From IMG/VR virus record IMGVR_UViG_3300014208_000026, positions 64,001 to 128,000 of that record: a stretch of 64,000 nt of DNA. The stretch is one strand, 5' to 3'. The notes beneath the pieces were generated by a model. The model was not told where the DNA came from and searched no databases. It saw nothing but the letters and a program-made list of their open reading frames with translations. Shown piece after piece: positions 571 to 56,373 of this stretch; position 1 is the first letter of the stretch, and the number at the start of each line of letters is the position of its first letter. Position numbers and translations under genes: made by a program. This stretch comes from a virus. Its lineage: Duplodnaviria; Caudoviricetes.

Positions 571-1095
571 ATGGATAACACGCTGCTTCGTAAAAATCTG
601 GTTCGGTTGGCGCATGAGAAGCCCGAGCTTCGTGAGAAGCTGGTCCCCCTGCTGAAGAAGACGGCGGGCGCAAATCGGAAGGCTTTTGCTTCCAAGGTGA
701 AGACCGAGTTCAAGATCATTGTTGATCATATTGAGAAGACTACTACAGAAGATTTCCCTGATTCGGGAGCCTCTGGAAAGTCCAGCATCGAGATTTCTAA
801 GAGCAATCTCGGGTCTTTTGGCTCTTTCAGTGAGGTCGTAGGCTTTCTTCAGAGACAGTATGATTTTCCAGGCTCTAAAGAAAATTGGAATGCTTTCGAG
901 CCAGGGCGTGTTACGACGAACCGTTCTGAGACGGACTCCGGGAGTGTCCCTGATACCACAGAGACACTGGGTTGGCAGAAAGGGGAACAACGGCTGTTCC
1001 TTGCAGACTACAATGTCTGGTTCCATTTCGCCCGGGTCTATACGCCGAGCGAGAAGGAAATTTCCAAGGTCTTCAAGATTCCGATGTATGACTAA
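571..1095 (+). CDS. Hypothetical protein with N-terminal PELR-type leader (candidate internal head protein)
   Basis: RBS GGAGG upstream; begins LRKNLVRLAHEKPELREKLVPLLKKTAG. Confidence 0.7.
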   Translation: MDNTLLRKNLVRLAHEKPELREKLVPLLKKTAGANRKAFASKVKTEFKIIVDHIEKTTTEDFPDSGASGKSSIEISKSNLGSFGSFSEVVGFLQRQYDFPGSKENWNAFEPGRVTTNRSETDSGSVPDTTETLGWQKGEQRLFLADYNVWFHFARVYTPSEKEISKVFKIPMYD

Positions 1096-1110
1096 GAGAG
1101 GTAAAAGACC

Positions 1111-2322
1111 ATGGCTCAGGGACCTTTCCAGGTAGACCAGCTTAAGATCGAGCCCTCAGCGGCCGGTACACGAACAATCGGACGCCATACGGATGGATCT
1201 ATTCTGTTCACGGACCCTGTGGCCGGAACTCTGACTCTTGCGCAGTTGGCTGGTTTGCAAACCATGACCAACGTGCTCATGGTCGGTAAGGGAGGCCCCG
1301 CTTCTCGCTACACAACCCTTACGGACGCCCTGGCCACTATCCCCCCTTCCGCGTCGAGCACGAACCCTTACGTGGTTCTGGTCGGTCCTGGGGTCTATGA
1401 AGAGAACGTGATTCTCAACAGCGACGGTGTGACTCTGTTCGCCTTGGGTTCCGTTCGAGTCACGGCTCCCTCGGGGAGTACAACGGCGGCTCTCACTATC
1501 CAGGCGGACGGTTCTGTTGTGCCGAAGGGCTGCAAGGTCATCGGGTTTTCTTTCGTCAACCCAAACAGCAATCGAGACTGTGTTCGCATTTATGGTCTGG
1601 CGGGTTCCGAAGTTGGGTCCGAGTGGCTCTCTTTCCTTGACTGTGACTTCGAAGCTTCAGGGGATGGGGCTTATCAAATTCGAGCGGACACGGCTGACTT
1701 CATCCGTGTCCAAGGGGGTTCCTGGTCGAACAGCCACGTCAACTCCCGCACCAAGTTCACGAACTGCGCTCGGGTTGTGGTTGAAGGGGTGCAGGACGCG
1801 AAAGACTTCACCCTCCTGTACGACACGACTGGTTCCGTTCCGAGTGAGGTTTCCAGTGAGTACCGCTTGGCCTATCTGAGCGGAGTTGACACCATCGCCT
1901 GCACCCTGTCTGGAGCGGGTAGCCTCTTCCTCGACAACGTGTCTCAAACTGGCAACCTCACGGTTGACGGGGACCGGCCTCTAGACGCTAGCTTCTGTAG
2001 GTTCGGAAACCTTACCGTGAACGGAACGGTAGAGGCAACACTGTCTGCCTGTTCCAGAGGAACCGCGACGGGTTCTGGTACAAGCACTCTGGCGGAATCC
2101 TATCTGAGCGGGTCCGCTTCTTTCACGGCGGATGATACAGGGGCCGTGGCTTTCGACGTGGGCCAGCCAGATACCGACTATTCCGTGTCCTTGGAACTCG
2201 GGGCAAATGCCGGAGGGTTAGTTCCTGCTTCGGTAGAGACAAAGACGGTTTCTGGTTTCGATATCGTTTTCGACGCTGCTCAGACCACGACGGTAGGCTA
2301 TACCGTGACTCGCAAGCTGTAA
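1111..2322 (+). CDS. Pectate-lyase-like right-handed beta-helix protein (tailspike/fibre-like)
   Basis: YTTLTDALATI...NPYVVLVGPGVYEENV is the typical beta-helix N-cap, followed by Gly/Ser/Thr-rich beta coils. Confidence 0.55.
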   Translation: MAQGPFQVDQLKIEPSAAGTRTIGRHTDGSILFTDPVAGTLTLAQLAGLQTMTNVLMVGKGGPASRYTTLTDALATIPPSASSTNPYVVLVGPGVYEENVILNSDGVTLFALGSVRVTAPSGSTTAALTIQADGSVVPKGCKVIGFSFVNPNSNRDCVRIYGLAGSEVGSEWLSFLDCDFEASGDGAYQIRADTADFIRVQGGSWSNSHVNSRTKFTNCARVVVEGVQDAKDFTLLYDTTGSVPSEVSSEYRLAYLSGVDTIACTLSGAGSLFLDNVSQTGNLTVDGDRPLDASFCRFGNLTVNGTVEATLSACSRGTATGSGTSTLAESYLSGSASFTADDTGAVAFDVGQPDTDYSVSLELGANAGGLVPASVETKTVSGFDIVFDAAQTTTVGYTVTRKL

Positions 2323-2339
2323 CAGGGAGACGTTGGATT

Positions 2340-3413
2340 ATGAACAAGCAAGCTGCGGCTACCGCCCTCCAGATCGTCGGGGAGTTTCTTTCTCGCGAAT
2401 GGCCCGAAGCCAAGAAGGCTATCGACGTCCAGGATTGGACCAAGGCTCTGAGCTGGGTCGACATGATGCTGTCTGCCTATTTCCACGCGGCGGGGATGAA
2501 CGAGGCTGTTCTCGACCTCTCGGACACGGACGCAGCTTCTCGCCTCTCTTCCCTGAAGCGGGCTTTGGAGCAGGGCGATCCGGACAAGATTGCTATCTGG
2601 GTGCGGTATGTTGAGCAAGAGGCGATCCCCGAGTGGAAGAAGATTCTCGTCAAGTACCGCTGGCAGTCGAAGTGGATGGGCAAAGCGGAGACCCTCATGC
2701 GGATGGCGAATCCGATTCTGAATGAGGCTGCGGGGATGAGCACTGCGATTTGGAAGAAGGTTTCGGAGAAGTATTTCACTGCGGGCCCCGAGGCGGCTCA
2801 GGAAATGCTCGACAAGATTAATGCCCGCAGGAACAAGGTAGCCCAGAAGTTCTCGTATGAGGATATGGTTGCCAACTTCTCACAGGCGAGTCTTGACGCC
2901 AAGGACTACTTCACGGACGGCGGTCAGGCTTGGAACGGCCCGAACTTCTCTCGCGTGCAGGACTACGTTCGTAAGGAGCGGGACGAAGCAACCCTGGACC
3001 TTCCGGTTATGTCGGGAACCAGAGTGGCTTTCAACCCCACCCTGGAAGCACTGTTGACCTATCCGACTCCTCCGAATGCCAAATACGCTGGAACGGTGGT
3101 TCGGGTGCGGACGGCACACGGGGATATGACAGCGGTCAAGGATCTCGTGTTCGTGAAGTGGGATACCGGTTCGTTCATGCCGGTCATGCGTCAGCACCTG
3201 CGTAGGGCGTCGACCAAGAACCAGAAGACGGCTTCCTCCTATCGTGTGGTGACGGCCTCCCTGGGGGACTTGACCGAATTCATGAAGGTTGGCGGGGCCA
3301 GCGACTCTCTCATCCACAAGGCCACTCGGGATCTGTGGAGCCTGGAGAAGTCCGGCGGGAAGTTCGTGCTGGAACGGTTGTTCACGGAATCTGGCGAGCC
3401 GCTTAAGGTGTAG
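2340..3413 (+). CDS. Hypothetical multi-domain protein (helical, SH3-like and small C-terminal domain)
   Basis: Long ORF in operon with RBS GGAG; domains separated by KTAS and KVGG linkers. Confidence 0.65.
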   Translation: MNKQAAATALQIVGEFLSREWPEAKKAIDVQDWTKALSWVDMMLSAYFHAAGMNEAVLDLSDTDAASRLSSLKRALEQGDPDKIAIWVRYVEQEAIPEWKKILVKYRWQSKWMGKAETLMRMANPILNEAAGMSTAIWKKVSEKYFTAGPEAAQEMLDKINARRNKVAQKFSYEDMVANFSQASLDAKDYFTDGGQAWNGPNFSRVQDYVRKERDEATLDLPVMSGTRVAFNPTLEALLTYPTPPNAKYAGTVVRVRTAHGDMTAVKDLVFVKWDTGSFMPVMRQHLRRASTKNQKTASSYRVVTASLGDLTEFMKVGGASDSLIHKATRDLWSLEKSGGKFVLERLFTESGEPLKV

Positions 3414-3415
3414 GG

Positions 3416-4114
3416 ATGCAGAAGAAAGCGGATGCTGGTCAGGATATTCTCTGGAGTCTGGTCGACCGGAGGGCTTATGCAAAAGTGCGTAGTCGTTTGA
3501 TTCGGGAGGACACCCAGGCTGGAGAATTTCTGTCACAGATCGCAGGCAAGCTTATCGAGCTTCTGGATCTCCCCCAGAACGAAGAGTACGCCCTCAATAG
3601 ACTCCGGAACGTGGTCACGAACCATTGGGATATGGGGAACATTCGGAATCAGGTGTTCAAGGCTGCGGATCTGTTGGGGCTGAATCTGCCCTCGGGCATG
3701 TTCGCTTCGAAGAGGGCCGGTCAGAAGAAAGGGCGCCATGCGGGCTACGATATTCTGTTCAAGCTGATCGACGAACAGAAGTACAACGCCAAGCACGATG
3801 AGATCGAGAAGGCGGGGGATGCTCAAACGGCTTCCCTATTCTTGGACATCGGGGCTACTCTGGCGGGTCTTTTCTATCGGATGGTGCCAGGGCGAGAGGC
3901 TTTGGACCATTTCCAAGATGTCGTTGAAAACGGGCTGCGTTGGGACGTGGCTCTGATTCGTGAAAAGGTGGTTTCGGCAGCAAACTCGCTTGGACTGAAG
4001 GTTTCAGGCCTTCGTCTCGCCTCTGGGGACAAACAGCTTCGTAGAGACTTGATTCGTTTGGCTTCTGCTAATCCAGGTCTGAGAAGTGCCCTTCTCCCCT
4101 TGCTTTCAAGGTAG
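3416..4114 (+). CDS. Hypothetical protein with an internally duplicated domain and C-terminal PELR-type tag
   Basis: AGQDILWSLVD and AGYDILFKLID repeats; ends LRRDLIRLASANPGLRSALLPLLSR. Confidence 0.7.
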   Translation: MQKKADAGQDILWSLVDRRAYAKVRSRLIREDTQAGEFLSQIAGKLIELLDLPQNEEYALNRLRNVVTNHWDMGNIRNQVFKAADLLGLNLPSGMFASKRAGQKKGRHAGYDILFKLIDEQKYNAKHDEIEKAGDAQTASLFLDIGATLAGLFYRMVPGREALDHFQDVVENGLRWDVALIREKVVSAANSLGLKVSGLRLASGDKQLRRDLIRLASANPGLRSALLPLLSR

Positions 4115-4120
4115 TGATCT

Positions 4121-5011: not shown

Positions 5012-5025
5012 GAGGAGAAGCCCTC

Positions 5026-10409: not shown

Positions 10410-10521
10410 GGAGGGGGAGATAGAAAGTGCTTTTCAGAGTTAGTGCCGATTCGTCCAACTGGGAGTTGGACGTTAGCTGGGCCATGGTGGCCCGGGAATG
10501 GCCTCAAGGAGGGGCCTTATA

Positions 10522-11676
10522 ATGTTGAGAGTTACAGAGTTCGTCGAGCGAGACCTGGGGTTCAAGTTGTTTCCGGTGCAGAAGTTTTTCCTCAGAATGG
10601 CTTATGGGGAGGCTCTGGACACCAAAGAGAAGTTCAAAGTCCCGCGAAGCTGGCACCTGGATAGCTTTTATGACATGACAGAGGCCGAGTATTTGCAGTT
10701 TCTGTACAACGAAGGGCGTTGCAATGCTTCGGAGCCAGACCCGTCCTTGAGAGACGTGTTTCTGGCAGGAGGCAGGCTCGGCTCCAAGTCAACCCTGAGC
10801 GCAATCCTATCGGCCTACGAGACATATAAGCTGATTCAAAAAGATAACCCACAGAAATACTACGGAATGTTGGAAGGGACGACAATTGACGTATTGTCTG
10901 TGTCTACAGACAAAGATCAAGCCGGAATGGTTTACCAAGAGGCGTCATTACTGCTGAGCCGCAGCGGGTACACCCGTCCCTATAGGGCACTTTCGACCCT
11001 GTCGTATACGAGGTTTCAGTCCCCCGCGGACGTCAGGCGTTATGGTTTTTTCCAGGGCCAGGAGGCGGGGTCTAAAGCCACTCTCCGTATGACTTTCAGG
11101 TCATGTATCGCAAAGGGTCTTAGGGGTCCTAACTGTGCCGCCGTGATTCTTGACGAGATGGCCCATTTTTGCGACGAAGGTCAGGGCTCAGCGGAAGCTG
11201 TCTACGACGCTGTGACCCCTAGTATCGCAAATTTCACTCCCAAAGACCCGACTGATCCGAGGATTGTGATCGGTCCTCGGGAGTCTAGTCTTTTTGTTCT
11301 TTCCACCCCCCTGATTGCCGTTCAAGGGGATGAGCCTGATTTCTTCTGTAGTTCGTACTCCAGTTCTTTCAAGTCTGGCGGGTGCCTATGCCTCCAGATC
11401 CCGACTTGGGAGCTTAACCCTGCTATTCCGGTTGGGGTGTATCAGAAAGCCTTTGAACGGAACCTCGCTACTTTCGAGGCAGAGTTCGGGGCGCGGTTCG
11501 TTACGCGGGAAAAAGTCGTGACCCCCTCATCCGGGATTTCTCGAATCAAGGTGCTGGTGCTCAGGTCGGGCGTAGAGACGTGGTTGCAGCTAGAAGGGCT
11601 CCAGGAGACTGACGTCATCCCCTTGAAAATTGATGGTACTCCTTTTATCGCAATGACCCGAACCGGAGATAACTAA
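10522..11676 (+). CDS. TerL ATPase-domain-only paralogue 1
   Basis: Collinear with TerL (KATLRMTFRSCIAKGLRG, VILDEMAH, QIPTWELNP, EFGARF). P-loop is GRLGSKS; no nuclease domain. Start chosen at ATG 10522 after AAGGAGG. Confidence 0.8.
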   Translation: MLRVTEFVERDLGFKLFPVQKFFLRMAYGEALDTKEKFKVPRSWHLDSFYDMTEAEYLQFLYNEGRCNASEPDPSLRDVFLAGGRLGSKSTLSAILSAYETYKLIQKDNPQKYYGMLEGTTIDVLSVSTDKDQAGMVYQEASLLLSRSGYTRPYRALSTLSYTRFQSPADVRRYGFFQGQEAGSKATLRMTFRSCIAKGLRGPNCAAVILDEMAHFCDEGQGSAEAVYDAVTPSIANFTPKDPTDPRIVIGPRESSLFVLSTPLIAVQGDEPDFFCSSYSSSFKSGGCLCLQIPTWELNPAIPVGVYQKAFERNLATFEAEFGARFVTREKVVTPSSGISRIKVLVLRSGVETWLQLEGLQETDVIPLKIDGTPFIAMTRTGDN

Positions 11677-11677
11677 A

Positions 11678-16432: not shown

Positions 16433-18304
16433 ATGGCTGTCCAAAAACCGCGTACACGTCGAGTGTCTATCGTTGGGAATCGAGGGACCCCCCGGAGGGT
16501 CGTGGCAGGGGCCATGCGGTCGAACGGGTTGGAGGGGGCTGTTGAAGTCTCTAAAGTAAAGCCTCGTCCGGCAACCCTGGGCCGTCCCGCCGTCAGGACG
16601 GGAAAGCCAGGGAAGATTGCCTCTGGCTCGATGCGGTTGGGTACTTCCGCTTTCGGCATGCCCGGGATTGGGAACTCTACGATGGGGCAGGGAGGTAACT
16701 TCTACTCCCCTGAGTTGTCGACTGACTTTTTGGAATTGCCGCAGAGCAGGGACGAAGAACGAAACTACTATCGGTTCTTCTACAAGCACGATCCTTTCGT
16801 CGGTCAGGCTATTGACCTCCAGACAGATATTCCGCTCTCGAAGATTCGATTGGGTAAGCCTGAGATTCCAGAGTTTGATTTGGACTATTTGAACAGCCCC
16901 GAAGGAAAGGAATTCTTGAAGGGGGCGGACAAACTGGCCAAGCAGTCCCAGCGGTTCTGCAAGAAGTGGAACCGTAGGATTCACTTGCTGAAACAACTTC
17001 TGGATATCTCCCATGATTTGAACCTTCTCGGTGAGGTTTTCGTTTTCATAGAGGACGACAATCCAGAGATGCCTGACGACGTGAGATACAACACGGTCCT
17101 GGCGATTGATCCCGAAGGGGGGGAGCCAGTAGAGCAGAAGCATGAGCGCGAAGACGCGGATGAGCGGGCCTACGAGTGGCTCCGGACGCATTACAAGGGA
17201 TGGACCGCCATGCGGGTTCTGCCGCCCGAGCAGATCAGTATGAAGTCTTTCCCCTTCACTGACGAGAGGCTCATCCAGCTCATTATTGATAGTAAGACCA
17301 AGGATCTCGTGAACCAAGCTATGGCGGGGGATCCCGACTCCCAGCGGATCATGGAAAGTCTGCCTGAGGATGTGGTTAATGCTGTGCTAGAAGGGGTCAA
17401 CATTCCTTTGAACACGGACCCTGAAGCAGGATCTTTCGTACATTATATATCTCGTCGTAAGTCTCAATATGAAGAGAGAGGCACTTCTGTATTATCAAGA
17501 TGTATAAGAACACTTGTTTTTATGGACAAATGCCGTCAGGCAAATACTTCGATTGCATCTCGTCATATGACACCTATGCGTATTGTTTGGGTTGAAGATG
17601 GCGATGCGGCTGATGTTGAAGAATTGCGTGAACAAGTTGATATGGCGCTTCAGGACCCCGACTATTCGATCATCACGAACTATCAGGTCAACTGGGAGGA
17701 GATGGGGGCGGAGCAGCGGCTTCTGGATCTAACTAGTGAGTACGAGCGAGCAGACCGTATGTTGTATGCCGGTCTGGGAGTTACGGAGTCGCTGTTGTCC
17801 GGTGAGTCCTCCTACTCAGGGGATAGGATCAACCTGGAGGTGATCAACACCCGTTTCATGCTCTTCCGCGAGTTGATGCAAGAGTTTGTCGAAGAGCACC
17901 TCTACGCTCCGATGTGTCGCCGGATGGGTTACGTGGTCACGGACGAGTGGGGGGACGAGATTCCGCTGGTTCCTGGACTGTCCTTTACTCGACTGGCTCT
18001 GCGGGACAATGCGGACACGTTCGACTCCATGCTGAACCTCTACCAGAAGGGCAGTTTGGATATTGACGTGATCCTGGAACTCTTGAATATCGATCCCGAG
18101 ACGACCCGCGAGAAGCTGAAGCGGGATCTGTTCACTCTCCAGGACGCCACCTTCAACGAACTTCTGCGTAGCATCTACAACGACGCGGCTCAGAAGCTCA
18201 ACGACAATTCCAACATGATCGACCTCATGGCGAAGAAGATGGGGATCGACGGGCTGGTGTACAAGAAGGCACAGGAAGAAGGCGACGGTCGGTTCGGCGG
18301 CTAG
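16433..18304 (+). CDS. Portal protein
   Basis: 623 aa just downstream of TerL; FYKHDPFVGQAIDL..IPLS, RGTSVLSRC, LGVTESLLSG.S.YS are portal-like motifs. Confidence 0.75.
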   Translation: MAVQKPRTRRVSIVGNRGTPRRVVAGAMRSNGLEGAVEVSKVKPRPATLGRPAVRTGKPGKIASGSMRLGTSAFGMPGIGNSTMGQGGNFYSPELSTDFLELPQSRDEERNYYRFFYKHDPFVGQAIDLQTDIPLSKIRLGKPEIPEFDLDYLNSPEGKEFLKGADKLAKQSQRFCKKWNRRIHLLKQLLDISHDLNLLGEVFVFIEDDNPEMPDDVRYNTVLAIDPEGGEPVEQKHEREDADERAYEWLRTHYKGWTAMRVLPPEQISMKSFPFTDERLIQLIIDSKTKDLVNQAMAGDPDSQRIMESLPEDVVNAVLEGVNIPLNTDPEAGSFVHYISRRKSQYEERGTSVLSRCIRTLVFMDKCRQANTSIASRHMTPMRIVWVEDGDAADVEELREQVDMALQDPDYSIITNYQVNWEEMGAEQRLLDLTSEYERADRMLYAGLGVTESLLSGESSYSGDRINLEVINTRFMLFRELMQEFVEEHLYAPMCRRMGYVVTDEWGDEIPLVPGLSFTRLALRDNADTFDSMLNLYQKGSLDIDVILELLNIDPETTREKLKRDLFTLQDATFNELLRSIYNDAAQKLNDNSNMIDLMAKKMGIDGLVYKKAQEEGDGRFGG

Positions 18305-18315
18305 TTTTTTTTTTG

Positions 18316-18337
18316 CCTATAGGGTCTGTCTGGGTAG
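18316..18337 (+). promoter_or_regulatory. Putative late promoter
   Basis: T-tract then CCTATAG-N11-GTAG; nearly identical to 55874..55895. Confidence 0.5.
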
Positions 18338-18361: not shown

Positions 18362-18856
18362 ATGACCATGACGACCCTGAAGAGCGCGTGTGTGAAGTTG
18401 GCGTATGAGAATCCGGAACTCCGCCCTCTGCTGATGCCTCTGCTGCGAAGCAAGACGGCAACCGAATTCCCCTCAAAAGAGGCTCTTGAGAAGTACCTCA
18501 AGGATCACCCCGGGGCAAACCGGTCGAACCATAAAGTTGTCGAGAACAAGGGTAAGGGAGAGGCCAAGACTGAGGGCAAAGAGGATTCTAAGGCTGTCTC
18601 CATGTCTCGTGAAGGCTACAAGGCTATTGCAAATTCCCTCCGTGGGTTTGGCAGTTCAGGTTCTTGGGAGCACGTTATTTCCTATGCCATTTCGGATAAG
18701 CCCATGGAAAGGAAGCACGTGGATAAGGTTCTTTCCGACATCAACGGGTATCTGAAGAACTGGAAAGCAACCTCCGAGAGTAACCGTTGGGGGGACAGGG
18801 ACAAGAAGAGCCTGACTCGGGCCAAGGGCATTCTGGAGAATTGGTCCAAGAAGTAG
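18362..18856 (+). CDS. Basic hypothetical protein with N-terminal PELR leader (start may be 18368)
   Basis: TLKSACVKLAYENPELRPLLMPLLRSKTA. Confidence 0.75.
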   Translation: MTMTTLKSACVKLAYENPELRPLLMPLLRSKTATEFPSKEALEKYLKDHPGANRSNHKVVENKGKGEAKTEGKEDSKAVSMSREGYKAIANSLRGFGSSGSWEHVISYAISDKPMERKHVDKVLSDINGYLKNWKATSESNRWGDRDKKSLTRAKGILENWSKK

Positions 18857-29535: not shown

Positions 29536-29925
29536 ATGCCCGACCGGAATCTTACAACCCGAATTGCCCAAAGGCACTTGCAGGCTCGCAAGTTTGTCTT
29601 GACTCCGCAGGTAGTCGCCGAGTTCCGCAAAGAATTCCTGATGTTGATGAAGAACCTGAAGCGAGTTCAGGATTACGAAGGGGCGATGGCCCTGAAGGAG
29701 GCTCTCCGTACCTGGAACCAGGACATGGATTTCTTTTTCGAGCAAATCCGTGATTTCCTCGAAGATCTGGTTCGAACCGAGAAAGACTCCGGTACAGGTA
29801 AATGGGCGGAGCATTACCTCAAGGAGTTAGGTCCGAGTTTCGGGGCTTTTCTGCATTGGGTTCCACATCTTCCGGTGACTAGGGTGGGGACGGTAACTTT
29901 TGATTTTGATTTCGATTTTAGATAG
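29536..29925 (+). CDS. N-terminal fragment of the giant polyvalent gene, cut by the IS607-like insertion
   Basis: Starts with a RIAQRHLQA tag; its last codons (VTFDFDFDFR*) lie in T-rich IS left-end-like sequence; joins in frame to the 31131 ORF at CGG. Confidence 0.6.
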   Translation: MPDRNLTTRIAQRHLQARKFVLTPQVVAEFRKEFLMLMKNLKRVQDYEGAMALKEALRTWNQDMDFFFEQIRDFLEDLVRTEKDSGTGKWAEHYLKELGPSFGAFLHWVPHLPVTRVGTVTFDFDFDFR

Positions 29926-39160: not shown

Positions 39161-42100
39161 ATGGCTTTCCTGAAGTTCGCAAATGCACGAATCATCACGC
39201 CGGACCTTGGTGGTCAGGCGGGGTGGAAAAAAGTGCGTACCGCGGCTAAGAAAGCTGACGTGTCCCCCGACCTTTTGGAGCAGGCCAGCGGTATTCTCGG
39301 GAAGCCTTTCAATCCCGATGACTACCTGCTGACTCACTGCACCATCGTTTCGAGCGTCGACGTGGAGCCTGTTCCTGGGGCCAAGATCGGTAAGATCAAG
39401 GAGAACGGCTTTACTGTCAATCGTATCTACGGTGACTACAGGATCACTGAAGACACTTTGGAGCAGATCAACGCGAACAAGGATGCATGGGCCCGTGGTG
39501 TCATTCTGAAGTCCTACCAGACGTTCAGGGGTGGCCAGAATTTCTGTTTTGCTCCTGGCACTGAAGTTCTGATGGCTGACGGAACTTACCGTCCTATCGA
39601 GAAGGTAGTGGCAGGGGACGAAGTGATCACGCATACGGGTGAGGCTCATAAGGTCACTCAGACTTTTGTTAGGGATTTCGAAGGCCCGATTCAGGCTCTC
39701 TACGTAGACCGATTCAAGGATCCTCTTCTCGTTACGGGAAATCATCCGTTCAGAGCCATTTCTGTCACAGCTTCTCAGTTGACCTCTTACTCTGGAGCTA
39801 AGCTTTCTAGTCAGGTTCGCTATCGAAGAGATCAGATAGTAGACTCCCTTCGGGATGGAGAGGGTCATTTTGGTAAGGCGTTTCCGGCAGTCCGCGAGAT
39901 CAAAACTCTCCTGGCTAAAAGCGCTATGCTAGCCGGGGACATTGCAGAAGCGATGGGCCATAAGAGAACTTATTCTTCTGTCATCATTCAGAGAGTTCTA
40001 AAGCGGCACACAGACCAGTTTTTTTCCCGTCCTTTGCTTGTTTCAGAGTATCCGTCTTTACAGAAGGGGCGGTGGTGCAGTCGAGTGTGGGCTGTTAGAG
40101 AAGACGCCCCTGATTTGCCGGATACTGACGTGAAGGCAGACAAAGATTGGGTAGCTGCTGAGCATTTCAAAGCCGGGGATTTCATTCTCGGCCCAGAGCA
40201 AAAGTTAGGGCAGATATCCGAACCTGAGAAGGCCACTCTTCTTGGTTATTACCTTGCAGAAGGGTGCCGTCTTGATCCTCATAAGGATTATGGGGTGTGT
40301 TTGGTTTTCGGGGCACATGAGCGAAATCTCGTAGAGCATGCTGCGAAGCTGGCTGAAGGGTGTTTCCCGGGAACTACGGCTCATATTCAGAATCCTAAAA
40401 ATGGGGCTTTGAGAGTAGATTTGCGCGGTTCTGAGATTTGTAAGTGGATGGTTCGAAACGGCGGCATTTATTCTGAATCAAAGCGTCTCCATCCGGACGT
40501 TTTCTCTTGGGACAGAGAATCTCTTTTGAGAATGTTTGCCGCGTGGATGGCTGGAGACGGGGATCATCACAAAGGAACCTTACGTCTTCGTGGAGTTTCC
40601 GTGTCTCATGAGCTTGCACAGCAAATGCACAGAGTTGCTGAGTTGTGTGGGATAAAATCTTCTGTTGTTTTTACGCGCCAAAAAATTGGCGAGGTTTGTA
40701 GTCAAGTGACAATGGTTATTGGGGGTGAGCCTCGCGTTTTCAACGTGATTCCTCGGCACCACGTGTGGACTGTTTTGGTATCTAAAGACTCCACTCCTGA
40801 AGTTACTTGCCGGAATATTCGGTGGGGGGTTCCTCTACACGTTGTTGAAGATGTGCACAAACGTCAGGAGTTTGCTTGGTGGGGTGGTTGCAGGGTTCAT
40901 AGGGTAGATTCTAATGAGTCTATCCCCTATAAAGGTAAAGTGCATAATATAGAGGTTGAGGAAGATCATTCCTATGTAGTCGATTATGGTATTGCGGTAC
41001 ATAATTGTGAGCACATACAAATCACGGAACTTTCCAAGGGCCGCATCATCGATGCCGTAGCCCGTGACGTTGGGAATTCGATTTACGTGGATATCCTGAT
41101 TGCTACGGACAGGAAGCACACGGACCTCATTCGGGATATCAAGTCGGGTAAGATGGGCACCCTCTCAATGGGTTGTTTCCTCCCCGGGACTCAGGTGTCT
41201 CTGGCTGACGGTAGTCGTGTAGCAATCGAAAACGTGCAGGCTGGAGACAAGGTTCTGACGCATAAGGGCCGTGCTCGCGAAGTGCTGAACAAGCAGGTTC
41301 GTGAGGGCGTGTGGAACATCCGGCGTATTCAGGTAGCCGGGGTTTCGGCTGTGATCACTGCAACGGACAATCACCCCTTCTACGTGCTTCGTGACGAGTG
41401 GGAGTGGATTCGGGCCGACGAACTTCAGGCAGGAGATCTCCTGTGTGTTCCTGTGGGGGATCAGACCGCTTCTGTTGTTCTTTCTATTGAGTCTGGTACC
41501 TACGAAGGTCCTGTCCATAACATGGAAGTGGCGGAGGACAACTCCTATGTTGTGGAGGGAGTCGCTGTTCACAACTGCACGACCGATTTTACTATCTGCA
41601 CCAAGTGCGGGCACGTCGCTGTCGACGATACTGACCTCTGCAGCCACATTAAATACGAGAAGGGCAACACCTTCTATTACCCCGATGGGAAGAAAGGTAT
41701 TGTTGCAGAGTTATGTGGGCATTCTTCAATCGATCCGACCGGAGGCGTCTATTTCATCGAAGCCTCTTGGGTTGGTAAGCCCGCATTCCTTGGCGCTGTG
41801 CTCCGTAACATCATCGAGGCCAGGGAAGTGTCGCCCTCTACCCGTAAGAAGGCTATGGAGGTTCTCTCCTCCCTGCCCCCGCAGTGGACTACGAATGGCC
41901 GTAAGAAGGCCGCCAGCATGTACCTCAGTGCTTTCGACGACGGGATGGATGAAGGGACCGAAGAGGCTCCGGCTGAATCCGAAGGAGCCCCTGCAGAGTC
42001 CGAAGGAGCCGCGTCTCCCTGGTCCGATCTCGAAGACAAGATGGTCCAGAAGATTCTCCAGAACGTCGAGAAGAAGCTGTCCGACCAGCTAGGTCCGGAC

Positions 42101-42475
42101 GGTAAGTCTGTGCCTTCTGCTCAGTCTGAGACGGCCCCGAACAACAACATCATCAAGCAGGCTGTCAAGAAGACGGCGGCTCAGTTCTACAACAACACTC
42201 TCTCCGCCATGCTCCGTACCGCTTCTTCGGATGCGGATCTCATGGATCGTGTGGCTGCATTGAATACTGCGTTCGGGATTTCCATCCCCGTGCCTCTGTA
42301 TCGTGCGGCTTTGAAATTCAGCGGTAGGAATACCACGCTGAAGGGTTATGTCGCCTCGTGCGAACGTGCTTTAGGCAGAAAGGTCGAAGCCGGGGAGGCC
42401 AAGACTTTAGTGCGTTTGGGGAAACTGCTGGAGCAGTTCTCCAATAAAACGGCAGCGAAACAGCAATCACGGTAG
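39161..42475 (+). CDS. Prohead (capsid maturation) protease, HK97/assemblin-like, with two inteins (483 aa after splicing)
   Basis: Spliced exteins read QNF-CEH..SKGRIIDA..LSMG-CTTD..FIEASWVGKPAFLGA (His, Ser and E.S.V..PA motifs); directly upstream of scaffold and capsid genes. Confidence 0.75.
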   Translation: MAFLKFANARIITPDLGGQAGWKKVRTAAKKADVSPDLLEQASGILGKPFNPDDYLLTHCTIVSSVDVEPVPGAKIGKIKENGFTVNRIYGDYRITEDTLEQINANKDAWARGVILKSYQTFRGGQNFCFAPGTEVLMADGTYRPIEKVVAGDEVITHTGEAHKVTQTFVRDFEGPIQALYVDRFKDPLLVTGNHPFRAISVTASQLTSYSGAKLSSQVRYRRDQIVDSLRDGEGHFGKAFPAVREIKTLLAKSAMLAGDIAEAMGHKRTYSSVIIQRVLKRHTDQFFSRPLLVSEYPSLQKGRWCSRVWAVREDAPDLPDTDVKADKDWVAAEHFKAGDFILGPEQKLGQISEPEKATLLGYYLAEGCRLDPHKDYGVCLVFGAHERNLVEHAAKLAEGCFPGTTAHIQNPKNGALRVDLRGSEICKWMVRNGGIYSESKRLHPDVFSWDRESLLRMFAAWMAGDGDHHKGTLRLRGVSVSHELAQQMHRVAELCGIKSSVVFTRQKIGEVCSQVTMVIGGEPRVFNVIPRHHVWTVLVSKDSTPEVTCRNIRWGVPLHVVEDVHKRQEFAWWGGCRVHRVDSNESIPYKGKVHNIEVEEDHSYVVDYGIAVHNCEHIQITELSKGRIIDAVARDVGNSIYVDILIATDRKHTDLIRDIKSGKMGTLSMGCFLPGTQVSLADGSRVAIENVQAGDKVLTHKGRAREVLNKQVREGVWNIRRIQVAGVSAVITATDNHPFYVLRDEWEWIRADELQAGDLLCVPVGDQTASVVLSIESGTYEGPVHNMEVAEDNSYVVEGVAVHNCTTDFTICTKCGHVAVDDTDLCSHIKYEKGNTFYYPDGKKGIVAELCGHSSIDPTGGVYFIEASWVGKPAFLGAVLRNIIEAREVSPSTRKKAMEVLSSLPPQWTTNGRKKAASMYLSAFDDGMDEGTEEAPAESEGAPAESEGAASPWSDLEDKMVQKILQNVEKKLSDQLGPDGKSVPSAQSETAPNNNIIKQAVKKTAAQFYNNTLSAMLRTASSDADLMDRVAALNTAFGISIPVPLYRAALKFSGRNTTLKGYVASCERALGRKVEAGEAKTLVRLGKLLEQFSNKTAAKQQSR
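39545..41005 (+). mobile_element. Intein 1 with LAGLIDADG endonuclease (487 aa)
   Basis: CFAPGTEV..VTGNHPF..LLGYYLAEG..FAAWMAGDG..HNIEV..GIAVHN; +1 residue is Cys. Confidence 0.92.
41174..41575 (+). mobile_element. Mini-intein 2 (134 aa)
   Basis: CFLPGTQV..ATDNHPF..HNMEV..GVAVHN; +1 residue is Cys. Confidence 0.92.
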
Positions 42476-44767: not shown

Positions 44768-45643
44768 ATGACTAACGTAAGTACCGCCCAGAAGCAAGAG
44801 ATCATCAGTCGCTACATCACCAGCCCCCAGGGCCGCGTCAAGCTGGCTGCCAGCATGACCCAGCCGCTTCGTACTCGGCGTGATTACACGTCGGTCGGCC
44901 GCAAGACTTTCCTGGTCGAGCAGCTTCCCGATGGCGCCTTGCCGCTGTACGATAAGGACCCCGACGTCACGGCGTTCGTGGTCGGCGAAGAAGGCGAGAA
45001 CATCCTGGCGGTCACGAAGCCTCGGCGCGTGATCTTCCCGCTGTTCGAGATCGCTTCGCTCCCCGAGATTCCTCTGACGCAGATCAAAGAACGTCGCTTC
45101 GATCTCATCGAGCGTGCTCAGGATCTGGCCCGTGCTCAGATCCAGGCCGCTGAGGATGAGCGCGTGTTCGCAATTCTGGACGCCATTGCCGTGGCGGGCT
45201 TTGATAGCCTTCCTGGCCAGATGAACCCTGACATCCCCGTCATTGCCCCCATCAGCCCGGCCGTCCTCGCGGATGCGTTCGCTCTGATCGAGGCTCATGA
45301 CCTTCGGGTTGCTCGTGTGTTCATGAATGCCCGCGATTACTCGGACCTGCGTAAGTGGGGCCGTGACATCCTGGACATCGAGTCCCAGGCTGCGCTGCTG
45401 AAGACTGGCCTGATGGCGACCCTCTGGGGCGCTCAGATCATCGTCAGCCGCCTTGTCCCCGTGGGCACCGTGTATGTCACTTGTGAAAGTGACATGTTTG
45501 GACGCATCCCCGTGCGTACGGAACTTACGGTTTTGAGTGCGGACGATCCCCGTGCGCGCACGATTGGGTTCTCCTGCTTCGAAAACCTGGGCATCGGGGC
45601 GTACAACCCCCGTGGCCTCACCCGTCTCACCGTAACCCGCTAG
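44768..45643 (+). CDS. Major capsid protein (HK97 fold)
   Basis: GRVKLAASMTQPLR..DY..VGRK..VEQLPDGALPLYDKD; strong RBS; strongest codon bias in the window; terminator follows. Confidence 0.8.
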   Translation: MTNVSTAQKQEIISRYITSPQGRVKLAASMTQPLRTRRDYTSVGRKTFLVEQLPDGALPLYDKDPDVTAFVVGEEGENILAVTKPRRVIFPLFEIASLPEIPLTQIKERRFDLIERAQDLARAQIQAAEDERVFAILDAIAVAGFDSLPGQMNPDIPVIAPISPAVLADAFALIEAHDLRVARVFMNARDYSDLRKWGRDILDIESQAALLKTGLMATLWGAQIIVSRLVPVGTVYVTCESDMFGRIPVRTELTVLSADDPRARTIGFSCFENLGIGAYNPRGLTRLTVTR

Positions 45644-45722: not shown

Positions 45723-45974
45723 TGTCTGAAATAGGGACTCGCTATCCGGGCCTGTTCTTCAAAATCCCCTCATAGCATTTTCCGGTAGATGTTTGTTTAG
45801 ATCCCGATCCGTGCGGGCAGGTTTTAAGCCAGAGCCTCTCAAGGGTCCGGTCTTATTTGTTATCGGATGTTGAACTTTTTTCTGTTGCCCTGCCCCGCTA
45901 TAGAGTATAGTTATAACGGAACAGGAAACCGTCGGTGCCAGTTCAGCCGAGCCCGACCAGGAAAAGGAGTTCAC

Positions 45975-48900
45975 ATGAAGTTGACCCCCGAAATTCTCAA
46001 GGACCTGTATCTGGTGCAGTTGAAAACGGAGACTGAAATTGCCGGTATGTTCGGAACTTCCCAAGTCCAAGTTGGGCGCCTTCGTAAGAAGTGGGGCATA
46101 CCGACTTTGGGTAAGACAGGACGCCTGGAAAAATTGCTGCCTCCAGTTCTAACTTCCGAACAGGAAGAGGTTCTAATAGGGTCTCTGTTAGGGGATGGTT
46201 GTCTTAAAGGTATTTCGGAAAAGACGGCTCTGTACACGGAGACTCACGGACCTTCCCAATACGCCTATCTCGATTGGAAAGCCGAAATATTAGGTCCTTT
46301 TGCTCTAAGTGTTTATCCGACGATGAAAAGAGTAGGGGATAAAGAGTTTCCAGGTAGAGGCTTTACTACGCATGCTAGCACTGTTCTCAGGCCCTATTAC
46401 GATATGTTCTATCCTGCTCCGTCCCGTAAAAAGGTTTTTCCGGTTGATCTCTCCAAGAGGTTGACCCCTCTGGCTCTGGCAGTTTGGTATATGGACGACG
46501 GAAGTCTGGCAGGCACACACACTGCACGAATAGCTTTCGGACTGGACCCTTTAAGTCTGGAAAGGGCTTTACAGGCGCTACGTGATTTAGGGTTCAATCC
46601 TGTAGCCTACGGTAAAAAGGGCAATCAGGCTATTTGGCTCACGGGGGATACTCATCTGTTTTTGGACTTGACCGGCAAATACGTCTCAGAGCACATGCCT
46701 CAAAAGCTACCCTGTTGGACGGAAAGGCAGAAAGGAGATTTGAATGCCGAGAAATTAACACCGGAGCTGGCGGCTGAATTGTATTCTGGAAACTCTACAG
46801 TTGAGGATATTGCTGAAAAGTTCGGTGTCGGTACAAGCACCGTGAAACGCCGTTTGCGGGATGCTGAAACTCCGATGAGACGGTCTGGCCCACGTGATGC
46901 AGAGCCGGGGGATACTGCCATGCAGCCCCTTAGAGTTAAACCGAGTTTTCAGGAATGCGGGGTGGTTTTACCATGCCCTGACTACAACGGCCCTATAGAC
47001 AAGAGCAATTATCAGTGGGCAAAGAAAGCCGGATTGACTCCAGATACTCTACGGGTGATATATGCTAAGTACGGTGATGAAGAGATAGCTGAGCTATTCG
47101 GGGTTTCAGGTGTAGCCGTTGGAGTTCAGCGTAAGAAATGGGGCATTGAAAGTATCAGTGCCAGACAAAGAAGAGACAAGGTGGAACGCAAGGGTTTGCC
47201 CTCGCTCGACAACCTCACGCCTGAAGGGTTGAAGGTTCTTTCCAAAACTATGGGGGACCAGAAGATCGCTGCTATGCACGGAGTACAAAAGCCTGCGGTT
47301 TCTCGACTGAGGGAGCAGTGGGATATAGCGGCAACGTCTAAGTCTGAACGGGCCACTTCTGAAACGATACTGACGGATGAACAGAAAGAAGCCTGTATTG
47401 GAACACTTCTAGGGGACGCTCATCTTACAGAAAGCGGTAGCTTGAGAGTTTCGCACAGCCACGATCAGATCGGGTATCTGAAAGCTTTACGCGCTATTCT
47501 GGTTCCTTACGCTAGACCGATTCATTATTCTGAGTCTAGTATGCCTAGTGGCCAAGTGTGTTTCACTTTCGGTTTCAAGACGGTTCAGCATATGTGGTTG
47601 AAAGAACTCCGTAACATCTTCTATCCAGAGCCGGAAAAGGTGAAAGTATTCCCAGAGAGTATTATCCGCACTTTAACACCCCTATCACTGGCATACTGGT
47701 ATTTCGATGACGGTCACTGGGGTGATGTTCTATATATAGCCTTGGGTCCCATCTCAGATTATGAAAAAGAGTACATTCCAGTTTGGCTGAAAGACCGTTT
47801 TGGCTTTGACTCCTACATAAAGGGGAAACCCAACTGTCGACTGCTGTTCATTCGTGGGGCTTCTCATGAGATTTTCTTCAATCTGATCCGAAACTACGCC
47901 ATTCCAGATATGCTGTACAAGTTCCCGCCGAAGTACCGTCCTGCGGGTATTCTTCCCATCCACCCCGTTAGGACAACGCCGCAAATCAAGATCCCTCCCG
48001 ATCTGCTGGAGGGTTGTGAGGACTGGCTCTCTAAGACCTCTGTACAGCAAGAACAGACAGTCGATGATCTGTGCGGTTTCTGGCGGAGCCAGGGTTTCCC
48101 CCACTGTGAAATCCGCCCCGAGGAGCTGATTACTCTTTTGGAAGTTACTCCGGATCAGATAATCCATGAAGGTGTGATTCGACCCCGACAAGTCGGGCAA
48201 TCCCTTTGTCATGCTTTCATGCCTCATATCTGGAAGGCCCGTTCCAGGAGCAGTGAGCAAAGTCCTTTCGACCTATTCTCTGATGACACTACGCTCAAGG
48301 GAGCTTTGCGGTATCTGTTGGAGAAAGGCAGTAAGCCAACGGCTGCGGGATTGCGCGGGGCTCTTCGTTACTGGAGGTACTCAGGAGTTTACAATTTCCG
48401 GCCCTCCGCAGCTAAGGCTTTGGTGGACACCTATTGCGTTCCTGGAGGCACAGTGTGGGATCCCTGCGCTGGTTACGGCGGGCGTCTCTTGGGTACTTTG
48501 CTGTCCAGGAACTCCCCGAAGTACATTGCTTGCGAACCACAGTCTGAGACCTTCTGCCGACTGCAAGAGTTGGCAGGCTGGTTAGAGAAGTATCTCCCTG
48601 ACATTTCTTCCCGAGTGCAGTTGAACCACGTTCCCGCTGAGGAGTTCAAGTTGCCCGAGTACGTCGACATGGTTTTCACTTCTCCGCCGTACTGGCAGCA
48701 GGAGGTTTACGGAGAGGAAGAGACCCAATCTGGGATTCGGTACAAGACCTATGAGGCGTGGTTAGAGGGCTTCTGGAAGCCCGTGCTTCGACAGGCGGTA
48801 GCAAAGCTGAAAGCTGGTGGCTGGTTGGTTTTGAACGTCGACACTTTCGTTGCCAACCACAAGACCTATGACCTGCCTGGGGACACGATCGCTATCTGCA

Positions 48901-49667
48901 AATCGTTCGGGTTCGACAGGGAGCCGGAGACGTTGCGTTATGCTATGAACGGGGACAATTACGAATCAGTATTGTGTTGGAAGAAAGCGGTGGCTGTGGT
49001 TGAGGATTCTGTTCCCGTTCCCATTCCGTCGGTTCCGAATCAAGTGATTGTTTCCCGTTGTGAAAACTGCGGGATTACGGTTCCTATTGGTGGGATCAAG
49101 GACGGTAAGTGCCCTGAGTGCCGTGTTCCAGGAGGGCACCGGACGTGCTGTAAGGGCTGTGGCGAAGTGTTCCAAGCCGTTCGAAAGGACCGAGAGTTCT
49201 GCGATGAAGCTTGTAGGGCTCGTTGGCGTCGCAGAGAATTCCGCAAAGTCCATCCAGCCAAGACCACCCGCACCTTCACATGCCAGTTCTGTGGCAAGAA
49301 GTGGGAGTCCTCGGAACTTGGATCGCCAAACAAGTGTACCGAGTGTAAGGCCGCCAAGGAACTCGCGAGCCGAACCAAGGTCTGCCAGTACCGTCATTGC
49401 GGCCAGACTTTCGTCGACACGTCGGAAAAGAACAGCATGAGTTACTGTCACGTGGAACACCGCCGCAGAGAGAAGCTTCTTCGTTCCGGAATGGCCCCTG
49501 ATCTGAGCTATTTCACGAAGCCGGATCCCGTGCTCGACACGGCTACTCCTGCAATGCCCGCAAGCACTGACAGCCCGACAAGTCAGCCCAGCGTGTCTGA
49601 CTTGTTTGGCATGCCTCCCCGCTCGGACCCTAAGATCCACAGTTCTGATTCCGACTACTCCATTTAG
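45975..49667 (+). CDS. Fusion protein: two LAGLIDADG endonuclease-like domains with HTHs, an amino-DNA methyltransferase and C-terminal zinc fingers
   Basis: LIGSLLGDG..LAVWYMDDG and CIGTLLGDA..LAYWYFDDG; VWDPCAGYGGR (motif I); FTSPPY (motif IV); many CxxC. Start at ATG 45975 after AAGGAG. Confidence 0.8.
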   Translation: MKLTPEILKDLYLVQLKTETEIAGMFGTSQVQVGRLRKKWGIPTLGKTGRLEKLLPPVLTSEQEEVLIGSLLGDGCLKGISEKTALYTETHGPSQYAYLDWKAEILGPFALSVYPTMKRVGDKEFPGRGFTTHASTVLRPYYDMFYPAPSRKKVFPVDLSKRLTPLALAVWYMDDGSLAGTHTARIAFGLDPLSLERALQALRDLGFNPVAYGKKGNQAIWLTGDTHLFLDLTGKYVSEHMPQKLPCWTERQKGDLNAEKLTPELAAELYSGNSTVEDIAEKFGVGTSTVKRRLRDAETPMRRSGPRDAEPGDTAMQPLRVKPSFQECGVVLPCPDYNGPIDKSNYQWAKKAGLTPDTLRVIYAKYGDEEIAELFGVSGVAVGVQRKKWGIESISARQRRDKVERKGLPSLDNLTPEGLKVLSKTMGDQKIAAMHGVQKPAVSRLREQWDIAATSKSERATSETILTDEQKEACIGTLLGDAHLTESGSLRVSHSHDQIGYLKALRAILVPYARPIHYSESSMPSGQVCFTFGFKTVQHMWLKELRNIFYPEPEKVKVFPESIIRTLTPLSLAYWYFDDGHWGDVLYIALGPISDYEKEYIPVWLKDRFGFDSYIKGKPNCRLLFIRGASHEIFFNLIRNYAIPDMLYKFPPKYRPAGILPIHPVRTTPQIKIPPDLLEGCEDWLSKTSVQQEQTVDDLCGFWRSQGFPHCEIRPEELITLLEVTPDQIIHEGVIRPRQVGQSLCHAFMPHIWKARSRSSEQSPFDLFSDDTTLKGALRYLLEKGSKPTAAGLRGALRYWRYSGVYNFRPSAAKALVDTYCVPGGTVWDPCAGYGGRLLGTLLSRNSPKYIACEPQSETFCRLQELAGWLEKYLPDISSRVQLNHVPAEEFKLPEYVDMVFTSPPYWQQEVYGEEETQSGIRYKTYEAWLEGFWKPVLRQAVAKLKAGGWLVLNVDTFVANHKTYDLPGDTIAICKSFGFDREPETLRYAMNGDNYESVLCWKKAVAVVEDSVPVPIPSVPNQVIVSRCENCGITVPIGGIKDGKCPECRVPGGHRTCCKGCGEVFQAVRKDREFCDEACRARWRRREFRKVHPAKTTRTFTCQFCGKKWESSELGSPNKCTECKAAKELASRTKVCQYRHCGQTFVDTSEKNSMSYCHVEHRRREKLLRSGMAPDLSYFTKPDPVLDTATPAMPASTDSPTSQPSVSDLFGMPPRSDPKIHSSDSDYSI

Positions 49668-53045: not shown

Positions 53046-53067
53046 GACCTACGAGAGGAAATTTCCA

Positions 53068-53463: not shown

Positions 53464-53469
53464 CTAGCG

Positions 53470-55430: not shown

Positions 55431-55454
55431 TCAACTCCCAAGGACCTTTCAAAA

Positions 55455-55853
55455 ATGCCAGTCTACGAATTCAAGTGCCAGAACGAAGAGTGTGCTTCTG
55501 ATTTCGAGGTTGTTCTCAAACTTTCCGCTTACGACACACCTCAGGTCTGTCCGGAGTGTGGTTGCGAAAAGACGCAGCGGAAGATTTCCAATGTGGGATT
55601 CATCTTGCAAGGTCCTGGCTGGCCCAGCAAAGCGGACCGCGTGAACAAGCAAATGCTCGCTCGACGGGAGAAGGTCGGACGAAGAGAGAACCAGTTGAGG
55701 AACGAGGCTCCTGGTGTGGCTCTGGTACCTAATGTCGACGGGGAGCGGACGGATTCCTGGTCTGAGGCTCAGAAGTTGGCCAAGGATAAGGGTAAGGATA
55801 CTAAGAGCTACACTCCGATGATCGAGAAAGAGAAGGCCAAGAAGCTCATCTAG
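55455..55853 (+). CDS. FmdB-family zinc ribbon protein
   Basis: MPVYEFKC..C..FE...CPECG..TQRKIS..GFIL.G.GW. Confidence 0.85.
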   Translation: MPVYEFKCQNEECASDFEVVLKLSAYDTPQVCPECGCEKTQRKISNVGFILQGPGWPSKADRVNKQMLARREKVGRRENQLRNEAPGVALVPNVDGERTDSWSEAQKLAKDKGKDTKSYTPMIEKEKAKKLI

Positions 55854-55873
55854 TCGGACAGCCCCCTTTTTTC

Positions 55874-55895
55874 CCTATAGAGCCTGTCTGGGTAG
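55874..55895 (+). promoter_or_regulatory. Putative late promoter
   Basis: T-tract then CCTATAG-N11-GTAG. Confidence 0.5.
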
Positions 55896-55923
55896 TGGAT
55901 CTAACTACCTGGAGACGATTCAA

Positions 55924-56373
55924 ATGGCTACTCTGAGAAGTGCGTGTGTGAAGTTGGCTTACGAGAATCCGGAACTTCGTCCTCTGTTGATGCCTTTGAT
56001 CAAGTTGGCAGGGAATCCGCCTAAGTACCAGGACTATGCGAAGGATAAGCAGAAGGCCGGAGAGAAGCCGTTGGACAAGGATGTCTGGGAGAGGAAGGTT
56101 CTCCACAAGAAGGGCCCTGTTAGTCCCTCCGGTCAGACGAAGGTAAAGATCCCCTGGGAGTTAGAGGATGTTCTGCACGAGTGGGGTGGCACAGGAGGCC
56201 CTCTGGATGATTTGGTTTCCAATAGGGCCATCACGTCTGACTCGCTGGACAGGGCAGTCAAGCACATCAAAAAGACATTGGCAGATCCGGATACCTCAAA
56301 AGGGGAGATTCGAGCTTTGAATAAGGCCATGCAGCTACTGAAGCCCGTTTTGGACAAGCACGAAAAGAAGTAA
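55924..56373 (+). CDS. Hypothetical protein with N-terminal PELR leader
   Basis: MATLRSACVKLAYENPELRPLLMPLIKLAG. Confidence 0.75.
   Translation: MATLRSACVKLAYENPELRPLLMPLIKLAGNPPKYQDYAKDKQKAGEKPLDKDVWERKVLHKKGPVSPSGQTKVKIPWELEDVLHEWGGTGGPLDDLVSNRAITSDSLDRAVKHIKKTLADPDTSKGEIRALNKAMQLLKPVLDKHEKK

Follow-up and report, generated by a model that had tools for sequence, protein, structure and literature searches.

Why should proteins of a huge phage that show no visible similarity to one another carry the same short segment at one terminus or the other? This question was raised by a 64,000-nucleotide stretch of viral DNA (Duplodnaviria; Caudoviricetes), hereafter the window, which covers positions 64001-128000 of the IMG/VR record IMGVR_UViG_3300014208_000026, a single viral contig of 257,181 bp rated by CheckV as about 49% complete. 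In an initial annotation of the window, the segment, here called the tag, had been described as a helix-turn-helix leader that targets four proteins to the phage head and is removed during head maturation. With a probability of roughly 0.55, we take the tag to be a prohead-targeting leader that the head protease cuts off; its removal, the loading of the tagged proteins, their docking partner and what becomes of the cargo are inferences from sequence comparison and structure prediction.

A profile of the four copies was run, with one iteration, over the six-frame translation of the whole contig, and eight copies of the tag were detected, seven of them N-terminal and one at the extreme C-terminus (Table 1). 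After the iteration all eight were matched at expect (E) values of 4e-16 to 2.5e-6, and the next match stood at E 0.34. The same eight copies were obtained from the whole genome with a second tool, used independently as a positive control; a regular-expression scan of the window gave just four. The four copies described initially were found in their reported places, within clear plus-strand open reading frames (ORFs), and the number of tagged proteins has been raised from four to eight, all the extra copies being N-terminal. The tag is about 23-26 residues long, with the consensus L-R-x-x-L-I-R-L-A-H-x-x-P-E-L-R-x-x-L-L-P-L-L, and two Leu, Ala, Pro, Arg and Leu are invariant across the eight copies. 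The leaders are basic (isoelectric point, pI, 9.2-11.8), and seven of the eight predicted mature bodies have a pI of 9.1-9.6. Seven of the eight tagged genes are located within 62-129 kb of the genome, among the genes for terminase, portal, protease, scaffold, capsid and neck proteins; the P0003 gene adjoins the portal gene directly on its downstream side, and a Shine-Dalgarno-like GGGAGG was found upstream of the P0001 gene.

Table 1. Positions of the tagged proteins, of the second tag, of promoter-like blocks and of head genes (window coordinates unless marked as genome; aa, amino acids; nt, nucleotides)
Feature	Position (strand)	Remarks
Tagged protein A (P0005)	genome 62628	N-terminal tag; gene precedes that of tagged protein B
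Tagged protein B (P0008, 270 aa)	1..118 (+), C-terminal end	N-terminal tag at genome 63309, just upstream of the window
Tagged protein C (P0001, 174 aa)	571..1095 (+)	Tag residues 6-28 (nt 586-654); KKTAG residues 29-33 (nt 655-669)
Tagged protein D (P0002, 232 aa)	3416..4114 (+)	Tag residues 208-230 (nt 4037-4105), two residues before the C-terminus
Tagged protein E (P0003, 164 aa)	18362..18856 (+)	Tag residues 6-28 (nt 18377-18445); KTAT residues 31-34 (nt 18452-18463)
Tagged protein F (P0004, 149 aa)	55924..56373 (+)	Tag residues 4-26 (nt 55933-56001); KLAG residues 27-30 (nt 56002-56013)
Tagged protein P0006	genome 128578	N-terminal tag
Tagged protein P0007	genome 153586-154539 (-) (L003:7586-8539)	N-terminal tag at 154539
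RVASR-aromatic tag, R-V/I-A-S/A/G-R-aromatic-L	4121-55430; genome 16036, 229015	13 copies; N-terminal, C-terminal and internal
Promoter-like block CCTATAGGGTCTGTCTGGGTAG	18316..18337 (+)	After a T-run, about 25 nt upstream of gene E
Promoter-like block, second copy of CCTATAGGGTCTGTCTGGGTAG	55874..55895 (+)	Upstream of gene F
Large terminase, split	10498-15834	Three consecutive ORFs (392, 316 and 1068 aa) matching large-terminase families
Portal protein	16433..18304 (+)	phrog_16240, E 6e-31
Head maturation protease P0168 (1104 aa)	39161..42475 (+)	Two inteins; six (K/R)xA(S/G/A) sites in the C-terminal tail
Acidic scaffolding protein P0009	42491..43870 (+)	pI 4.1; seven (K/R)xA(S/G/A) sites; gene order as in Tunturi_5
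Protein in decoration-protein position, P0010	44088..44756 (+)	By gene order only: directly before the capsid gene, like phage G gp26 'capsid decoration'
Major capsid protein P0011 (291 aa)	44768..45643 (+)	HK97 fold, phage G gp27 type; PDB 6WKK chain A, E 8e-62; PF25209

If the eight proteins were diverged paralogues, with the motif as their best-kept segment, no portable tag would be needed. The pair P0003 and P0004 may represent such a duplication: their tags are nearly identical (21/23 residues), the tag-coding DNA is about 90% identical, a 22-nt block upstream is common to both genes and present nowhere else in the genome, and a faint 33-residue match was detected between the bodies (E 0.011, as a single comparison). 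The pair may have derived from a duplicated or transplanted promoter-leader cassette. When the tag-less bodies were compared all against all by BLASTP, no significant pair was obtained (best E 0.11), and profiles of the P0003-family and P0002-family bodies matched none of the other bodies, in agreement with the lack of visible similarity noted initially. Tag-bearing bodies range from 100 to 1780 residues, and long proteins may hold several copies inside. P0002 has a body made up of two copies of a helical domain (the first modelled by AlphaFold2 at a predicted local distance difference test score, pLDDT, of 78-90); with the P0002 model, a Foldseek search of the PDB gave no match at E ≤ 0.001. 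This domain recurs in four metagenomic proteins, P0295, P0296, P0297 and P0298. Residues 35-136 of P0296 are homologous to the P0002 body (E 4e-18), and its tag is located at the N-terminus (residues 4-26), opposite to that of P0002; P0298 carries a degenerate helical tag. P0297 (E 5e-20) and P0295 start with RVATKHL and RVAARHL, respectively, which represent the other tag of this genome, RVASR-aromatic, ahead of the P0002 domain. As one body can thus carry the tag at either end or carry the other tag instead, simple paralogy is excluded, and we give the paralogue explanation hardly any credence. That the tag is a portable module, placed on unrelated proteins at either terminus, was a correct prediction.

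The carriers of the RVASR-aromatic tag include ART-PolyVal, InPase and possibly MPTase-PolyVal domains, which Iyer and co-workers reportedly described in 2017 as typical of virion-packaged, injected proteins. Since P0002-type bodies occur with either tag, both tags are suggested to serve one purpose or destination. In the initial annotation the helical tag had been listed as a second portable tag and as the mark of a second cargo class; a division into two classes is not clearly supported, because homologous bodies bear either tag.

Directly behind the N-terminal copies a cleavage site had been presumed, and KKTAG (P0001), SKTAT (P0003) and KLAG (P0004) were indeed present there. For all seven N-terminal tags, the sequences following within ten residues are RTAA, RTAA, KTAG, KTAT, KLAG, KTAA and KTAG; the pattern [KR]TA[GSAT] is found after six of the seven, KLAG being the seventh. 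With a proteome frequency of 0.55 per 1000 residues, about 0.04 such sites would be expected, and our Poisson estimate gave P of the order of 1e-11; this frequency was taken from a greedy ORF picker that favours longer antisense frames over P0001 and the scaffold, and that was used only there. Among relatives, 150 cluster representatives supplied 183 tags at N-terminal or internal positions, and (K/R)-x-A was found at most six residues behind 127 of these (69%), compared with 9% of background windows. As K-x-A-S also precedes internal and C-terminal tags, the motif stands on both flanks of internal tags; in P0002, RLAS is located at residues 200-203 (nt 4013-4024), ahead of the C-terminal tag. 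In the alignment of the P0002 family (A6), all five members have (K/R)-x-A right before the shared body, whichever leader they carry (QKKA, NKVA, SKEA, SRTA and PKVA), and the flanks of the RVASR-type tag are identical in kind (KTAG, RTAS and KTAA).

The motif is also frequent away from the tags. Judged against composition-preserving shuffles, (K/R)xA(S/G/A) was enriched in the scaffold P0009 (7 versus 1.6 expected, p 5e-4), in the scaffold of a relative (10 versus 0.9), in the C-terminal tail of the protease P0168 (6 versus 1.15) and in the tagged protein P0007 (6 versus 1.85), and was not enriched in the capsid protein. In addition, RTAA is located at residue 26 of the protease, with KTAA at about the same place in Tunturi_5 gp331. 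Prohead proteases classically act on scaffolds and on protease tails (PMC9026906, PMC10052503). On the basis of this enrichment in classical substrates, (K/R)-x-A is read as the putative cut site of the head protease. The K-T/L-A-G/A site proposed initially is one case of this general junction, at which the leader would be removed.

Further modules were noticed in two of the tagged proteins. Behind its tag, P0003 contains E-F-P-S-x-E-A-L-x-K-Y-L-x-x-H-P-x-A-(N/D) (window 18452-18560), probably a small conserved domain, which recurs behind tags in larger proteins of relatives (354, 845 and 350 aa; L099, L108 and L109). P0007 is polyprotein-like, with two copies of a 29-residue DPT-x-(N/S)-MSPEAKAKWEANKGKIEDIAKKA module and three related hydrophobic helical modules, two of which directly follow V-K-T-A-G.

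To see how widely the tag occurs, 1.84 billion cluster representatives were searched with a 38-column profile built from its eight copies. Matches were obtained for 3,777 protein clusters at E ≤ 1e-3 and for 295 at E ≤ 1e-10, all metagenomic. The best 150 matches hold two to six copies each (121 N-terminal, 176 internal and 57 C-terminal domains), and in the multi-tag proteins of relatives acidic low-complexity spacers lie between the tags. The terminal position given in the initial annotation is valid for this genome; a strictly terminal leader is not what the relatives show, their tags being often internal and repeated. Ten cluster representatives that were looked up originate from metagenome, sequencing-run or draft assemblies, several on contigs of 140-530 kb, and the only match among GenBank phage records was an uncultured 485-kb phage. 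The tag is not covered by any Pfam or PHROG model, either in the window's proteins or in 103 further tag-bearing proteins of relatives, and the only near family matches were sub-threshold ones to DUF6193. A description of the motif was not found in a literature search, the incomplete coverage of which makes this no proof of novelty.

Relatives of the capsid protein were detected in 563 IMG/VR stretches, the best 80 of which are 83-88% identical; counted as protein clusters, the capsid clade amounts to 1,973. All five large records with the same capsid protein are tagged (1, 9, 25, 19 and 11 copies), and three of five tag-bearing contigs collected from an independent seed protein encode the same capsid protein, the two misses being 5-12% fragments. 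In a second set of records with this capsid protein, the tag was present in 7 of 11. Both sets together gave the tag in 12 of 16 records with an 80-88% identical phage-G-type capsid protein, and in four of the six records that are ≥90% complete. The search that recovered the eight copies from their own genome as a control did not find the tag in cultured phage G or Tunturi_5. In this large clade of uncultured huge phages, whose capsid is of the phage G type, the tag is joined to many small, mostly basic proteins. As tag-free relatives exist, two of them complete, the tag is frequent but dispensable in this clade.

Several observations weigh against a prohead-targeting leader. The four tag-free records of the second set (4/11) include two rated 100% complete (312 kb with terminal repeats; 376 kb), and therefore the capsid needs no tagged proteins and its conservation cannot be credited to the tag. 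In other huge phages the tagged genes are often located among non-structural genes, and almost no tagged body has a recognisable function, so that the view of these bodies as cargo is left unsupported. The (K/R)-x-A motif is short and might reflect no more than what is preferred in helix caps or linkers. Tags that are internal, repeated and joined by acidic linkers would suit assembly or scaffolding as well as cargo, the scaffold P0009 gave no match to the genome-wide tag profile, and the structure models of the tag reached only moderate confidence (pLDDT 50-70).

Some of these points would suit a general docking or oligomerisation 'sticker' for a non-capsid complex, such as a factory for replication or assembly, a site at a membrane or a hub of multi-tag proteins, with the flanks acting as helix caps or linkers. 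Many relatives have two to six tags per protein with acidic low-complexity spacers, which corresponds to a sticker-and-spacer layout; the non-structural neighbours of tagged genes in other huge phages include those of nucleotide metabolism, and complete relatives with the same capsid protein are free of the tag. The enrichment of the flank motif in the scaffold and the protease tail is, however, unexpected from a linker preference, and the motif is placed at the same alignment column before a shared body regardless of the leader. Moreover, the tagged genes of this genome are, with one exception, in its structural region. A two-tag model showed no confident tag-to-tag packing (predicted template modelling score, pTM, 0.20), a weak argument against stickers from which no conclusion was drawn. 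Altogether, we consider the sticker explanation doubtful, though still worth keeping in mind.

For every tag modelled, AlphaFold2 predicted a pair of helices interrupted by a single residue in the conserved Pro region, located at residues 205-218 and 220-231 of P0002 and at residues 2-16/18-30 and 101-114/116-129 of P0034. The helix-turn-helix proposed in the initial annotation agrees with this helix-break-helix, at the moderate confidence of the models. A look-up of the tag in the ESM Atlas returned generic helical hairpins only, and the predicted complex between the capsid protein (alignment A5) and the tag (alignment A4) had a score of 0.00, which is uninformative either way. The C-terminal helix-turn-helix of the P22 scaffolding protein binds the inner face of the HK97-fold capsid protein (PMC9965877), and this hairpin, when fused to foreign proteins, suffices for procapsid loading and serves as an artificial encapsulation tag (PMC9962691). 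In its predicted shape our tag resembles it, both being helix-turn-helices about 30 residues long in which basic and hydrophobic positions are conserved. In P22, however, the hairpin is a part of the scaffold itself and stays uncut, and its use for cargo is man-made, whereas the scaffold of the present phage is tag-free and ends in a different conserved C-terminal motif, W-E-S-A-P-D-V, and diverse natural proteins are tagged, with presumed cut sites flanking the tag.

From this likeness one might suppose that the tag is a capsid-binding helix-turn-helix of the P22-scaffold type and that the tagged proteins are auxiliary scaffolds or assembly chaperones, which leave the shell and are not delivered as cargo. 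Size and predicted shape match the 30-residue P22 hairpin, which engages one coat subunit each (PMC9965877), the acidic multi-tag proteins look scaffold-like, and the tag flanks have the motif of the bona fide scaffold. Set against this, a conserved scaffold with its own C-terminal motif is already present, and the tagged bodies vary widely and are small and basic, not acidic and coiled. In addition, the tag is exchangeable with one found on ADP-ribosyltransferase and pyrophosphatase domains, and complete relatives manage without it. An auxiliary-scaffold role is therefore judged to be improbable.

Its predicted helices, charge and position also bear on whether the tag could act as a signal in some other process of the cell, for example in export, in the recruitment of chaperones or in regulated degradation. 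The terminal position and the Ala-rich K-T-A-A ending after some tags would fit a signal of this sort, and related huge phages encode Cpn10 and ClpP-like genes (PMC12484599 for phage G). The tag is, however, amphipathic and charged without a hydrophobic core, unlike Sec or Tat signals; internal and repeated copies are unsuited to a degron or a signal peptide; and no ClpP-family gene was found in the 257-kb genome fragment. We regard a signal of this kind as very improbable.

Targeting leaders coupled to a protease site are a known kind of device; the motif described here is the part for which neither a published description nor a curated family was found. The closest parallel to the proposed prohead-targeting leader is the capsid targeting sequence (CTS) of T4, 10 residues long, which is carried by small basic internal proteins (IPI-III, Alt), is followed by a protease site, and is portable to foreign proteins (Mullaney & Black 1996, in PMC9026906). 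In both systems a short portable leader is common to dissimilar small proteins, which are basic as the T4 internal proteins are (PMC9026906), and is directly followed by a short site that matches the other presumed substrates of the head protease; aiming at the prohead and subsequent removal, proven for T4, would apply to the tag by inference, and the cargo set of T4 varies between relatives as well. The T4 leader differs in being N-terminal only and 10 residues long, whereas the tag has about 23-26 residues, a predicted hairpin, either-end or internal placement and up to six copies per protein. No sequence resemblance was seen by inspection. The T4 site is L/I-x-E instead of (K/R)-x-A, and the protease of the present phage is of the Tunturi_5 gp331 type, no match to the gp21-family Peptidase_S77 (PF03420) having been found in the genome.

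In SPN3US and other phiKZ-like giant phages, head and ejection proteins lose N-terminal propeptides by cleavage at a short consensus (PMC10052503, PMC5694885). These, too, are giant phages, whose heads contain many internal or ejected proteins, and the short site is likewise found many times in scaffold-like regions; their protease trims its own C-terminal tail, to which the motif-rich protease tail of the present phage may be likened. Their propeptides are, however, mostly 111-254 residues long and do not consist of one portable motif, cleavage takes place at A/G/S-x-E, and the phages belong to another lineage, with a different capsid protein and protease. Encapsulin cargo-loading peptides are short, stand at the N- or C-terminus of unrelated cargo proteins, and dock inside an HK97-fold shell. 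They are extended motifs without a helical hairpin, are not removed, and belong to bacterial compartments rather than virus heads. By analogy, the tag resembles them as a short either-terminus peptide on unrelated proteins, and differs as a predicted hairpin in a virus setting.

The prohead-targeting leader would act in three steps. The tag would first dock on a conserved prohead component, either the inner surface of the capsid, the scaffold core or the portal, and the protein would be trapped inside. The head maturation protease would then cut at the (K/R)-x-A flanks, which in this phage read K/R-T/L-A followed by G/A/S/T. Finally, the body would be freed inside the head, and the tag would exit together with the scaffold fragments. 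An acidic amphipathic helix of the scaffold, E-E-x-M-L-x-x-M-L-A-E, was considered as a possible docking helix, but its strict pattern is present in only 13 of 46 distinct scaffolds; wherever the record of a pattern-bearing scaffold was searched for the tag, the phage was tag-positive, and several tag-positive phages lack the pattern. The complete tag-free relatives offer a natural contrast for finding the receptor of the tag. The scaffolds of tag-free relatives (L047, L059 and L088) form a subtype of their own with long Asp/Met/His-rich repeats, and contain an internal N-x-R-V-A-S/R motif resembling the RVASR-aromatic tag.

Nearly all that is known of huge phages comes from metagenomes, and for most of their genes no function has been assigned. 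If verified as an address label, the tag would mark head-loaded and probably injected proteins, including likely counter-defence and take-over factors, and it could be read in thousands of genomes without culturing. For the engineering of protein-filled capsids, it would also be a compact encapsulation tag taken from nature, usable at either end and paired with a site for its removal. A more speculative and rather unlikely extension is that both tags together with the (K/R)-x-A site constitute a 'packaging code' readable throughout the clade, in which the multi-tag proteins with acidic spacers would form a multivalent internal core, the counterpart of the phiKZ inner body, for single-tag cargo. 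Were this so, the injected proteome of thousands of uncultured huge phages could be listed from sequence, and such a core would be a head-loading principle undescribed for any phage.

Upstream of all four tagged genes outside the upstream operon, a T-run followed by CCTAT(A/C) was found 40-60 nt before the start codon, at 18305-18337 and 55863-55895 of the window and at about 128520 and 154600 (minus strand) of the genome. This arrangement is a candidate late promoter. Genes G and H have another block in common.

Whole-genome searches with Peptidase_S77 (PF03420), Peptidase_S78, CLP_protease and Phage_capsid (PF05065) gave no match, and the protease and the capsid protein were identified through Tunturi_5 gp331 and PDB 6WKK instead. 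The three extein pieces of P0168 match Tunturi_5 gp331, 'head maturation protease', at E 2e-23, 9e-14 and 1e-10; no sequence match was obtained for a protease fragment against the PDB. Tunturiibacter phage Tunturi_5 has the same order of genes ahead of the capsid gene, namely those for the decoration-position protein, the scaffold and the protease. The two inteins of P0168, recognised by Hint/intein Pfam matches, are located at about residues 129-616 and 672-805; both start with Cys-Phe and end with His-Asn followed by Cys, and the first is large enough to contain a homing endonuclease. The three terminase ORFs start with a similar segment (…YPVQK/R…L…YG…PLDD…), and could be a split gene, an intein-interrupted gene or tandem paralogues. 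Two other elements lie in this region. A transposase gene (phrog_506, E 2e-117) is located at window 29900-31126 in the structural region, with the gene for a 2229-residue protein with an HD domain directly downstream. Directly 3' of the capsid gene, at window 45867-49667, an ORF of 1266 residues gave LAGLIDADG endonuclease and helix-turn-helix matches as well as a sub-threshold DNA-methylase match, and may represent a fusion or an intervening element.

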